A stretch of 64,000 nucleotides of DNA from positions 46,099 through 110,098 of the forward strand of contig CAZZNE010000009.1 of NCBI GenBank assembly GCA_964655525.1. The letters are read 5' to 3'. The stretch's first letter is position 1. The number at the start of each line of letters is the position of its first letter. The DNA comes from an uncultured Clostridium sp. (GTDB taxonomy: Bacteria; Bacillota; Clostridia; Lachnospirales; Lachnospiraceae). Made by a program: the position numbers and the translations under genes. This document shows, in pieces, positions 19,872 to 52,294 of this stretch. The notes beneath the pieces were generated by a model. That model had not been told where the DNA came from. It made no database searches and saw only the letters and a list, made by a program, of their open reading frames with translations.

Positions 19872-19906
19872 CGAAGGAAGCGCCGATACGATCGGCGCTT
19901 CCTTCG
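19872..19906 (+). terminator. Stem-loop after the alarmone synthetase gene (16-bp stem, weak U-tract)
   Basis: CGAAGGAAGCGCCGAT-acg-ATCGGCGCTTCCTTCG. Confidence 0.6.
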
Positions 19907-20179
19907 GACTTTCTGCGGCGCACGCGGATAGGAAAAGAATATGCCGCTTTGCGTTCTTTTTACCCCCTAAAATGAGGAGTGCCTGAGTACCTTTCGGCAC
20001 TCAGGCTTATTATGAAAAAAATAATGAAAATCATGATGAAAACAATAACTTGAATTAAGTTAAGTATAACGATAGATTATGAACAAATCATGAACGAACC
20101 GTGAATGATTGGTTAATATTTATAAACAATCCAAAAAATGGAAATAAATGTAGTGCAGATTGCACAAAAACGAAAGAGC

Positions 20180-20208
20180 TTGAGAGAATCAAAACTGTAT
20201 GTTATAAT
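20180..20208 (+). promoter_or_regulatory. Sigma-A-type promoter with extended -10
   Basis: TTGAGA (20180-20185), a 17-nt spacer, then TGtTATAAT (TATAAT at 20203-20208). Confidence 0.6.
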
Positions 20209-20223
20209 AGGCACATAAGAAAA

Positions 20224-20250
20224 ACAAGCGACCGCGCAGCGGGCATTTGT
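20224..20250 (+). repeat. Copy 1 of an exact 27-nt direct repeat, ACAAGCGACCGCGCAGCGGGCATTTGT
   Basis: Read directly. It is identical to 20344-20370, with an offset of exactly 120 nt. Confidence 0.95.
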
Positions 20251-20343
20251 TTTTCTTGTGCCTATACCGAGCAAACGCCCGGCGAAGCCGGGTAAAAAGT
20301 GCGGAGCACGAGTTTGCGAGGAAAAAGGAAAATAAAGGACAGT

Positions 20344-20370
20344 ACAAGCGACCGCGCAGCGGGCATTTGT
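20344..20370 (+). repeat. Copy 2 of the exact 27-nt direct repeat
   Basis: Read directly. It is identical to 20224-20250. Confidence 0.95.
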
Positions 20371-20402
20371 GGGGTACATGAAAAGAGGAAGAAAGGGTCT
20401 GG

Positions 20403-21332
20403 GTGGAAAACATGGATAGCTTTATGGATAAAATTGCACACAAATTTACGGCACAGGATATGATCAAGGCGAATGCGGCGGCGGAGGAAAAGGAACTGGA
20501 GCGTCTGCGCGTGCAGGTTGCCGAATATGATACAAGAATACAGGAGATCCGTAAGCTGAATCTCAAGAATTTGGAGCTGGCGGATAATCTGCAGGCAATG
20601 ATTGATGCCGGAAACGCTAAGATAAAAGCGTATGCGGACGCACAGGAGCAGAGCGAGCAGGCGGAAGGGGCAGCGGCGCAGGCTGTGACCGGCGAGCAGC
20701 TGGAAGACCTGTCTCAGAAGTTGATCACACAGACGAAGCAGCTTACCATGGCAAAGCTTGAGACGATGGAGCGGCTGGATACGTTAGAGAACAGATTAAA
20801 CACACGTTCAGAGCTGGAACAGATCGCGGAGAAGTTGGAGAAGTCTTCGGTATCCGAGGAATTGATCGCAAGGCTTGACACCAGTGAGAAGCTGAATGAG
20901 ATTGCAGCAAAGCTGGAGCAGCAGCCGACGACGGACGAAATCGCGGAGAAGCTGAATTACCGCACGGCATTTGAAGGAATCGTATCAAAATTAGACAGAT
21001 TTCCGACGCTGGATGAGATTGCAGAGCGGCTCGTCAGCGAAAAGCCGGAGGGACTTGAGGAACGGCTGAATGCGGTCAAGGAAGAGCTGACCGACCATGT
21101 ACATAAAGAGAACGTTAAAGTATACCGTAACGTGCAGGCAGCGATCATAGATGAAAATAAGAAGCTGGCGGAGGCGATCGCCGCATCTCAGATAGAGATG
21201 AAGGAGCAGCTTGCAAGAACCGAAAAGAACGTATCGGGACTAAAGACGCTCGCAATCGTGACATTGATCGCGGCACTTGCCAATATCGGGATCTGGGCTG
21301 CGTCAATCTTCAATCTTCTGCCTACGTTCTGA
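20403..21332 (+). CDS. Coiled-coil protein with internal (T/S)x(D/E)EIAEKL repeats and a C-terminal TM anchor
   Basis: E/K/L/A/Q-rich with heptad-like periodicity. Repeats 'SELEQIAEKLEK', 'SEKLNEIAAKLEQ', 'TTDEIAEKLNY' and 'TLDEIAERLVS'. C-terminus 'LKTLAIVTLIAALANIGIWAASIFNLL'. The start could be GTG 20403 or ATG 20412. Confidence 0.7.
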   Translation: MENMDSFMDKIAHKFTAQDMIKANAAAEEKELERLRVQVAEYDTRIQEIRKLNLKNLELADNLQAMIDAGNAKIKAYADAQEQSEQAEGAAAQAVTGEQLEDLSQKLITQTKQLTMAKLETMERLDTLENRLNTRSELEQIAEKLEKSSVSEELIARLDTSEKLNEIAAKLEQQPTTDEIAEKLNYRTAFEGIVSKLDRFPTLDEIAERLVSEKPEGLEERLNAVKEELTDHVHKENVKVYRNVQAAIIDENKKLAEAIAASQIEMKEQLARTEKNVSGLKTLAIVTLIAALANIGIWAASIFNLLPTF

Positions 21333-29428: not shown

Positions 29429-29603
29429 CTCTTATTCGGAGTGGTGGAGATACATAGGATCTGTGAAGCCACGGCAACCCCATAACCGGAAGGTGCCAAC
29501 CTGAGCGAATATTGTTGACCGCATATCATCTGCGGTTGATCGAACAATAAGAGGATTTGATTATCTGTGATGTCAGGTCCGCTTAGCTGCGGACTTATTT
29601 TTT
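29429..29603 (+). promoter_or_regulatory. SAM-I (S-box) riboswitch with intrinsic terminator
   Basis: P1 CTCTTATT/AATAAGAG. Conserved blocks 'GGTGGAGA', 'GTGAAGCCACGGCAACC' and 'GGAAGGTGCCAACCTGAGCG'. Terminator GTCCGC-ttagct-GCGGAC followed by TTATTTTTTT (about 29576-29603). It sits directly upstream of metK. Confidence 0.9.
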
Positions 29604-51009: not shown

Positions 51010-52294
51010 ACAGGACTATGTGCTTAAGTGTCTGGATTCCTTATTTGCTTCTGATACGGACGATTTTGACGTCTACGTCGTGGACAACGCATCGCAGGAT
51101 GATTCCGTAAAACGGATCAAAGAACAATTCGGGGATCGCGTAACGCTGTTGGTAAATCAGGAAAATCTGGGCGGCTCCGGCGGATTCAATACAGGACTCA
51201 GAAAAGTGCTGGAAGGCGATTACCAATACTTGATGTGCGTGGATAACGATATTGTCTTTGCGCCCGATGCAGTCAGCGCGCTGCGCCGCTTTTTGGAGGA
51301 GCACGAGGATACGGCGGTGGTGGGCAGCAAAGCGTACTTTATGGACGAGCCGGATAAAATCTGGAATTTTGGCGGGATCATCCGCTTTGATACCTTTATT
51401 CAGCAGGATCAACATAAAAATTGTATAGATGCGGGACAACTCCCGGAGGTGGTATACGGCGATTATGTTCCAGCCTGTTCTCTGATGGCACGGGTGGATG
51501 CGGTCAGGAAAGTCGGTATCATGCCGGAGGACAACTTTATTTATTGGGACGATATGGAATGGGGGTATCGCTTCCGGCAGGCAGGCTATAGGGTCGCGTC
51601 CTACGGAAAGTCGAAGGTGTGGCACAAGGCCGGGGGCAGGAATGCGGGAAACACCTTTATTCATTACTATATGTGGCGGAATCGGATTCATTTTTTCAGA
51701 CAGTTTCTTCCGCCGGAGGACAGAGAACGTTTTGCGGAAAGTCTGCTGACAGAAATGTTTCGGATGATCTATAGCGTCAACTTAAAGGGAGAGACGAATA
51801 TCATACGGACGCTCATGTATGCCTTTGATGATGCCGTACACGGAGTAAGGGGAAAAGCAAAAGAGGGAAGAATTCTGCCGAGACCCGCCGTGGCGAACCG
51901 ATTGGAGCAGGCATTATCGGGAAAAGAAAGCGTGTTGATCCGATTTAACGGAAGCTTTGAGGGAATTGGAAATATCGTCAAAAATATACGAAAGACGCTG
52001 CCGCATATGCAGATCGCGATTTCCACAGCGGACTGTCCGGAGCAGGCGGGAGAACTGATAACGCAGTATCCGGATTGTGAGGTCACGGAGTGCTATGAGC
52101 CGGAGAAGTTTGCGGCACATCTGGTCATGTGCGAGCATATTTTTAAGCTGTCGCCGGACATGGAAAAGGACAGTTATATCGATCCGTGGTGTAACCTAAT
52201 CTACACGGCAAAAGATTTTATCTATGCCAGCAGCTTCGAGCAGACCAAGCAATTGTTTGTACTGTGTAAAAAAGAGCTTTTGTGCGGTGATTGA
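50969..52294 (+). CDS. GT2-family glycosyltransferase with a C-terminal domain of about 170 aa (paralogue A)
   Basis: 'IGIVICNYNK', 'VYVVDNASQDDS', 'NLGGSGGFNTGL' and 'CVDNDI'. It overlaps the upstream SDR gene by 41 nt. Confidence 0.85.
   Translation: MGKEIGIVICNYNKQDYVLKCLDSLFASDTDDFDVYVVDNASQDDSVKRIKEQFGDRVTLLVNQENLGGSGGFNTGLRKVLEGDYQYLMCVDNDIVFAPDAVSALRRFLEEHEDTAVVGSKAYFMDEPDKIWNFGGIIRFDTFIQQDQHKNCIDAGQLPEVVYGDYVPACSLMARVDAVRKVGIMPEDNFIYWDDMEWGYRFRQAGYRVASYGKSKVWHKAGGRNAGNTFIHYYMWRNRIHFFRQFLPPEDRERFAESLLTEMFRMIYSVNLKGETNIIRTLMYAFDDAVHGVRGKAKEGRILPRPAVANRLEQALSGKESVLIRFNGSFEGIGNIVKNIRKTLPHMQIAISTADCPEQAGELITQYPDCEVTECYEPEKFAAHLVMCEHIFKLSPDMEKDSYIDPWCNLIYTAKDFIYASSFEQTKQLFVLCKKELLCGD

Follow-up and report, generated by a model that had tools for sequence, protein, structure and literature searches.

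The coiled-coil gene considered here is preceded by a structured leader in which one 27-nt sequence is found twice. The question raised by this locus is whether the leader is a control device dedicated to that gene, as supposed in an earlier note made from the sequence, or belongs to something of wider distribution. We searched for the 27-mer ACAAGCGACCGCGCAGCGGGCATTTGT in the window, which means here the whole 64,000-nucleotide stretch of DNA under analysis. Two exact copies were found on the + strand, at 20224-20250 and 20344-20370, and these remained the only two sites when up to three mismatches were allowed. No match was obtained in any of 100 shuffles, confirming the exact repeat. The promoter in front of the leader, TTGAGA-17-(TG)TATAAT, scored 11/12 against the consensus and carries the TG extension, in agreement with its previous description as near-consensus (Table 1). 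From the canonical spacing, we infer that transcription starts at about A20215, approximately 7 nt after the -10 box.

Table 1. Positions of the features at the coiled-coil locus in the window.
Feature	Position	Strand	Basis or detail
Locus-specific upstream control region	20010-20170	+	Sequence read; outside the repeat family
Sigma-70-type promoter	20180-20208	+	-35 TTGAGA 20180-20185, 17-nt spacer with TG, -10 TATAAT 20203-20208
Full unit of the dispersed repeat	20208-20328	+	Covariance model, 126.4 bits, E 1e-27
P1 hairpin, including 27-mer copy 1 (20224-20250)	20210-20262	+	Fold and covariation
Three-way junction	20267-20321	+	Fold and covariation
Partial second unit (remnant)	20322-20377	+	120-nt offset, equal to one unit length; orthologue comparison
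Purine-rich ribosome-binding region and ATG (20412)	20378-20414	+	Conserved in 8 species
ORF for coiled-coil protein, 306 aa, C-terminal membrane anchor	20412-21332	+	ORF listing

Folding of the region 20208-20415 gave a minimum free energy of -69.1 kcal/mol (z = -3.97), a stability reached by none of 200 shuffles, and reproduced exactly the two hairpins and the closed three-way junction proposed before. In the first hairpin, P1, the lower stem GGCAC/GTGCC is followed by an A-rich/U-rich middle stem (GAAAAACAA/UUGUUUUUC), an internal loop GCGA/GCA and, in this leader, the tip CCGC-GCA-GCGG. The junction is formed by P2 (here CCGAGCAAAC/GUUUGCGAGG, carrying a tandem G.A/A.G pair), P3 (20277-20293, with a GAA loop) and P4 (20299-20309, with a GGA loop). 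The second hairpin lies in a remnant that consists of a degenerate 5' arm (20322-20343), the second copy of the 27-mer with its exact tip, and a GGGGTAC flank, which pairs with GTAC and closes the hairpin; the covariance model described below gave a partial match at 20344-20370. With a start at A20215, the lower-stem strand GGCAC is presumably untranscribed and would be left out of the transcript. RNA beginning at A20215 is predicted to fold as a 5'-terminal hairpin with zero 5' overhang.

No terminator-like site was detected on the + strand between 19800 and 20500. The ribosome-binding region (AGGAAGAAAGG...GGGTGGA..ATGGATAG) is conserved in 8 species, and in the minimum free energy fold it stays free of pairing with the element. 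P1 itself was considered as a terminator or attenuator and rejected, since the same scan gave no G+C-rich stem followed by a U run, and since a unit stands directly upstream of tmRNA; as the 3' arm of P1, the U-rich run is itself base-paired. When the region 19900-20500 was scanned with the covariance models of Rfam 15, nothing relevant was obtained, either at the gathering score or at E<=10. Likewise, no Rfam family fell on any copy in 20 loci holding other copies of the element. The Clostridiales-1 RNA motif (RF01699), like the present family an orphan structured motif of gut Clostridiales, matched neither this locus (E<=10) nor the 20 copy-bearing loci (gathering score). The only Rfam match in the window was an ordinary SAM-I riboswitch (RF00162) at 29429-29553, with 63.4 bits. 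For the coiled-coil protein with its C-terminal membrane helix no Pfam family was found above the cut-off; its gene is present in all eight species of the genus at 72-94% DNA identity.

The first lead to a repeat family came from a search of the own genome with the 27-mer at three mismatches, by which variants were found at two other loci. At these loci a matching architecture of about 120 nt lies directly 3' of a TATAAT box. The exact 27-mer is confined to this leader, but variants of it with compensatory changes (ACTGCGAAGCAGG, GCCGCGAAGCGGA and others) head the unit elsewhere in the genome. The order within the unit is P1 as a long hairpin, a linker of 2-4 nt, and P2 with the tandem G.A/A.G, leading into the three-way junction with P3 and P4. 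A first covariance model was built from three copies and used to search the own genome (G000) and 201 Lachnospiraceae genomes, one per genus. G000 gave 12-13 matches, to which are added no fewer than six solo promoters with the pattern TATAAT-(A/G)(A/G)GCGCAAAGGAAAAACAAGCG. The family was found in 27 of the 201 genera with up to 18 copies per genome, and inside the genus the copy number ranges from 0 to 13. Tandem arrays with a period of 113-121 nt are frequent, and many copies lie at contig ends. A second model, built from 54 copies and run on 400 Clostridia genomes, gave matches solely in the Lachnospiraceae and one sister family, this class-wide result being a floor because few candidates were scored per genome; both the family-wide and the class-wide searches used strict filters, by which copies are undercounted. 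The leader is therefore not dedicated to the coiled-coil gene: the unit stands before unrelated genes and tmRNA, in substance a dispersed repeat, also in other Lachnospiraceae. Text searches of the literature, including searches with core sequences, yielded no description of the family. It is apparently an undescribed family of promoter-leader cassettes, absent from Rfam.

We next consider which part of the unit is conserved. In an alignment of 54 distinct copies from about 20 genera, 95.8% of the pair cells are standard pairs and 34 of the 39 pairs have changed on both sides. The observed covariation values were matched by none of 500 shuffles, and sliding of the pairing partners lowered the paired fraction to 36-54%. 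Pairing amounts to 90.5% in helix 1 and 97.5% in helix 3 of P1 among the 54 copies, while every pair of P2, P3 and P4 shows changes on both sides and the G.A positions are 96-98% conserved. The upper stem and loop of P1, on the other hand, are free in sequence, vary in length from 7 to more than 30 nt and change in a compensatory manner; what is conserved in P1 is the A-rich/U-rich stem and the internal loop GAAAAACAAGCG...CAUUUGUUUUUC (CAAGCG...CAUUUG). Since the tip varies across copies, the particular 27-mer is not the conserved item, and the idea that the apex is recognised, which had been drawn from identical apices on divergent stems, fails. The nearly invariant unpaired nucleotides are the C of AAG-C-G, the A of C-A-UUUG and the G after P4, along with the G.A pairs. 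A K-turn in the P1 loop or at the P2 G.A pairs was ruled out by inspection, the 2x2 loop being symmetric and no 3-nt bulge being present. As to selection at the RNA or the DNA level, G.U pairs outnumber A.C pairs (42 vs 27), an asymmetry that is not decisive in an alignment that was itself fitted to an RNA model. These data support the presence of a real, conserved and strongly covarying structure right behind a real promoter.

Association with a promoter is a property of the family. In 44 of 93 copies (47%) the last base of an exact TATAAT lies 0-7 nt ahead of P1, in most cases with TG in front of the box, as against 4 of 460 control windows (0.9%); internal copies of tandem arrays have no abutting TATAAT. 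For about 85% of the copies a co-oriented ORF, as defined by crude ORF calling, begins 10-150 nt downstream. The genes downstream of G000 copies encode a GT2 glycosyltransferase, a DEDDh exonuclease, a LytTR response regulator, an AraC regulator, a SEC-C protein, cardiolipin synthase, a DUF5104 lipoprotein, a DUF436 protein, the coiled-coil protein of the window, and tmRNA. In other genera they include cmk, dnaK, dnaG, radA, pheS, holA, hprK and the genes for DHFR, a sigma factor and a tRNA. No functional theme was found among the downstream genes of the own genome and other genera, such as the related genes expected downstream of a riboswitch. In G000 the unit at C3:92593-92712, with its -10 box, ends 9 nt before the mature 5' end of tmRNA (C3:92722-93075), and the same arrangement is seen at L098 of the congener G203. 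At this distance the element would form a leader on the tmRNA precursor, which RNase P would have to cut off. In another genome a co-oriented tRNA gene follows one copy (L012, G009:C1, 1251-1333) at a distance of about 170 nt, and a copy at L008 (G099:C47, 1692-1790) stands back to back with a TPP riboswitch.

The position of P1 relative to the promoter was then compared among copies. Of the 54 aligned copies, 37 allowed a -10 box to be assigned. Among these 37, 16 have a covarying P1 lower stem that starts just 2 nt downstream of the box and so ahead of the predicted transcription start; in 13 copies the distance is 5-7 nt, which places the stem at that start. The P1 palindrome extends through the discriminator into the TAAT of the -10 box. 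These positions point to selection that acts in part on the DNA, or on read-through RNA, and a model of DNA-level cassettes and recombination stays alive.

To follow the history of the leader, we extracted the orthologous interval, bounded by the small alarmone synthetase gene and the coiled-coil gene, from the eight species that make up the genus; every one of them has kept the promoter. The full unit with a second tip is present in G000 and G202. In G202 both tips read CGACTGCGCAGCAGGCATTT, with CTGC/GCAG in place of the CCGC/GCGG of G000, a compensatory change by which the two tips remain mutually identical; further compensatory differences between the two orthologous copies are found in P1, P2, P3 and P4. 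In G207 the full unit is followed by AAGAAAAACAAGCG-GGTATTTTTGGGGTAC, so that of the second unit the 5' arm survives without the tip. The leader of G204 consists of the promoter, the 5' arm and one tip joined straight to GGGGTACATG, a deletion exactly between the 27-mers. In G203 this tip, too, has gone, only TATAAT-A-GGAAAAACAAGC remains before the ribosome-binding region in G205 and G206, and the interval is rearranged in G201. From these states of the eight species, the ancestral leader consisted of one unit and part of a second, made up of the 5' arm, the tip and the initial 7 nt of the 3' arm. It is dispensable, and it decays via recombination between its own repeats. The identity of the tips within a lineage is best explained by duplication and short-patch gene conversion, and selection for alternative pairing between both tip copies may also contribute.

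Turnover is likewise seen at other loci, as the flanks of the copies in G203, G204 and G207 were compared with the G000 genome. At C12:94916 and C2:15853, G000 has a solo -10 box and 5' arm, while a full unit is present in G207 and G204, respectively. At C7:51376 the 5' arm and tip of G000 correspond to a unit with a second tip in G207, and at the C29 locus the tandem number differs between G000 and its relatives. At C14:86538 the P1/three-way-junction unit is present in G204 and G207, and its place is taken in G000 by two other structured modules that lie between ATGATATAAT boxes. In G070 the copies are 86-95% identical. Behind each unit stands a second -10 box (ATGATAYAAT), often continued by an incomplete 5' arm and in some cases by another kind of hairpin module. 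Other dispersed modules were noted on the way. One of them, GGGCAGAG-UCAAGUG-hairpin-CAUUUGA-CGAGCGAAGCGA-hairpin-CUCUGCCC, occurs in G000 at C14:86545-86690 and C7:~51250-51376, and at C14 it fills the -10-bounded slot in which G204 and G207 have the P1/three-way-junction unit. A second repeat, TTATTCCCGCGAGCAATGAG-CCAAGCGGCTGCGCAGCAGACATTTGG-CGAATGCCGCGAGGG..., is about 95 nt long and likewise dispersed, being found in G000 at C10:15732, C15:76882, C21:56564 and C27:30008 and beside C10:20379; its tip hairpin (AAGCGG...GACAUUUG) is of the same type as that of the unit, and it ends in a terminator-like G+C-rich hairpin.

We consider it probable, at about 0.6, that the locus contains an interspersed repeat specific to the Lachnospiraceae, present as one full unit followed by the beginning (5' arm and tip) of another, and that this repeat acts as a generic promoter-leader cassette. 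The unit comprises an extended -10 box (TGnTATAAT) abutting the element, P1 with its A-rich/U-rich arms and variable tip, and a three-way junction stiffened by the tandem G.A pairs. Copy number shifts by recombination between the direct repeats (-10 box and 5' arm), giving rise to tandem arrays, '1.x' copies and solo promoter remnants. With RNA polymerase presumably starting about 7 nt after the -10 box, the 5' terminus of the mRNA would be a very stable stem-loop, with the compact junction behind it. The likeliest effect would be constitutive promoter supply together with protection or insulation of the mRNA 5' end, like that afforded in Firmicutes by 5' stabiliser hairpins against RNase J/Y, and no ligand- or gene-specific control would be exerted. 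The cassette is read as selfish or domesticated and not as a sensor on account of its promoter association, orientation, structural selection and repeat turnover, together with the predicted stable 5' hairpin. The element is compatible with high expression because a unit immediately precedes tmRNA. As a counterpoint, the nearly invariant unpaired nucleotides and the reuse of the tip module in the second repeat family hint at specific recognition by a factor.

Such recognition is central to a quite unlikely alternative, a global cis-regulatory leader in which the P1 internal loop and the tandem-G.A junction bind one protein or small molecule, the downstream genes form its regulon, and the two tips provide two binding sites or an alternative pairing. 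The very strong covariation with nearly invariant unpaired nucleotides, the compensatory changes in P1-P4 between the G000 and G202 orthologues, the joint change of both G202 tip copies, the recurrence of the tip module in the second repeat family, and the constant position in a 5' leader all agree with a regulon. The downstream genes, however, lack a theme and include tmRNA and a tRNA gene, no expression platform is seen (no terminator is present and the ribosome-binding site is free in the fold), and sister species have lost the element or its tip while keeping promoter and gene. The spread of 0-13 copies inside one genus, the restriction to 27 of 201 genera, and the near-identical copies in G070, which look like a recent burst, also argue against it. 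A self-cleaving, catalytic or processing RNA, or an antiterminator hairpin of the BglG/LicT (RAT) type, is highly improbable. Tandem arrays in many gene contexts and a tandem G.A motif beside a junction would fit such an RNA, and the tip (ACUGC...GCAGGCA) has what we take to be a resemblance to the RAT hairpin. These resemblances to RAT/BglG, hammerhead and twister were rejected, since no Rfam ribozyme or other family was matched even at E<=10, no hammerhead, twister or pistol core is present, no terminator overlaps the hairpin, and the downstream genes are not sugar-PTS operons.

The other alternative, which we regard as unlikely, places the selected property in the DNA. Units and other modules bounded by the junction of (T)GATATAAT with GAGCGC would enter, or replace one another at, -10 boxes through recombination, as by integration of a one-unit circle, with P1 recognised as a DNA hairpin; the target gene would stay expressed because each cassette brings a replacement -10 box. 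In favor of this are the reach of the P1 palindrome into the untranscribed discriminator and the TAAT of the -10 box, the second -10 box and partial 5' arm that follow many units in G070 and in this genus, the enrichment of a 3' TATAAT (15 of 93 copies vs 14 of 460 controls), the module swap at C14:86538 between G000 and G204/G207, and a four-cassette chain with the same boundaries in the sequence MT835743. A purely RNA-level role, starting from the abutting promoter, leaves the lower stem at 2 nt after the box (16/37) unexplained. Against DNA cassettes, no recombinase or transposase is linked to the copies, the two -10 boxes that flank a copy on the left and right resemble each other no more than the consensus would predict, the 3' box is missing in many genomes, and all polymorphisms can be explained by homologous recombination between repeats. 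It is doubtful that the units are either exchangeable cassettes integrating at -10 boxes, a gene-free, integron-like shuffling of promoters in gut Lachnospiraceae, each with a replacement extended -10 box and a folded RNA, or a new class of structured RNA that docks a cellular factor at the conserved P1 internal loop and G.A junction, so tying dozens of housekeeping genes and tmRNA to one signal.

Several routes of mobilisation were tested with regard to the generic cassette. PF01797 (Y1/RAYT) had no match in G000 and was absent from the genomes G070, G099, G132, G009 and G019, which hold 6-17 copies; it was found in 14 of the 27 element-positive genomes and in 118 of the 201 overall, indicating no association with the family. 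Mobilisation by RAYT/IS200 was therefore rejected. The unit ends, ATGATATAAT... and ...GCGAGTTTAGATG, are not inverted repeats of the kind that marks MITEs and Correia elements, and the flanking -10 boxes are not fresh target duplications, because they are no more alike than the consensus demands. Every 'empty' site found among relatives keeps a piece of the element, either a solo 5' arm or a 5' arm with tip; the sole congener of G070, compared for empty sites, is 74-79% identical and rearranged. A search for carriage by plasmids gave no plasmid match. Carriage by phage was also rejected, as the three matches named 'Bacteriophage sp.' are unannotated faecal virome contigs, of which the one examined, MT835743, is bacterial. 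This sequence (L118, MT835743.1 13513-18626) comes from human faeces and bears the title 'UNVERIFIED: Bacteriophage sp.'; its genes for the ATPase, permease and lipoprotein of a methionine-type (metNIQ-like) ABC transporter show it to be evidently Lachnospiraceae chromosomal DNA. Its four cassettes, each bounded by GATATAAT joined to GAGCGC, form a chain downstream of the transporter genes and about 300 nt before the next large ORF.

As a multi-copy, intergenic and modular element with a variable number of modules in tandem, the family resembles known interspersed mosaic repeats, and on the sequence level it has the promoter box and co-orientation expected of the BOX/Correia-like class (47% vs 0.9%, ~85%). 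BOX elements of Streptococcus pneumoniae, mosaics of boxA, boxB and boxC, are short, non-coding, multi-copy and modular, with an internal module that varies in tandem number. They form stable stem-loops, lie mostly just upstream of genes in this Firmicute, and can affect expression; to our knowledge no enzyme that mobilises them has been described. The Lachnospiraceae family is likewise multi-copy, modular, folded and upstream of genes, but has no sequence relation to BOX and another host family, and BOX lacks the defining extended -10 box and tandem-G.A three-way junction. Correia elements (CREE/NEMIS) of Neisseria are interspersed, carry promoter boxes at their ends, and are co-transcribed with their neighbours to give a long RNA hairpin. 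They possess terminal inverted repeats and a TA target duplication, neither of which was found in the Lachnospiraceae family, and the two are unrelated in sequence. REP/BIME/REPIN sequences are palindromic, multi-copy and arranged in mosaic clusters, as in the Lachnospiraceae family, but REPs lie mainly 3' of genes and depend on RAYT, whereas the Lachnospiraceae units lie in 5' leaders and PF01797 is absent from the high-copy genomes. In the ermC and aprE leaders, 5'-terminal stem-loops protect Firmicute mRNA from 5'-dependent decay. The transcript predicted here, from A20215, would likewise open with a stable hairpin; those stabilisers are single-gene features, and stabilisation by the Lachnospiraceae cassette would be of the same kind. 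Putative mobile promoters, highly similar promoters upstream of non-homologous genes within and between genomes, have been surveyed (PMC3575422). That survey is similarity-based and describes neither a folded leader nor tandem units nor the present family. In function the family resembles BOX elements, Correia elements and mobile promoters; in sequence it is a member of none. By the tests applied here it is not a REP/RAYT element, a MITE, a member of an Rfam family including Clostridiales-1, a riboswitch or a terminator.

If the reading as a generic cassette is correct, about twenty promoters of this genome, including that of tmRNA, stem from one repeat family, with comparable numbers in other gut Lachnospiraceae, which would matter for the wiring and rewiring of gene expression in a group that is prominent among human gut bacteria. 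The units would also offer natural promoter-plus-leader parts for Lachnospiraceae genetics. For motif searches they are a warning against reading strong covariation in a 5' leader, taken alone, as evidence of a riboswitch.

Control specific to the coiled-coil gene might reside upstream of the promoter. The region there contains (A/G)TGAA direct repeats in two clusters of three, at 20012, 20024 and 20036 with 12-nt spacing and at 20079, 20090 and 20101 with 11-nt spacing, and the palindrome GTGCAGATTGCAC at 20152-20164. The ATGAA repeats and palindrome reported before are thus present, and both are conserved in all eight species of the genus. Judging from their arrangement, the clusters and palindrome look like helical-phase sites for a putative activator of the coiled-coil gene of the response-regulator type. 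They are retained even in those congeners that have lost the repeat element.
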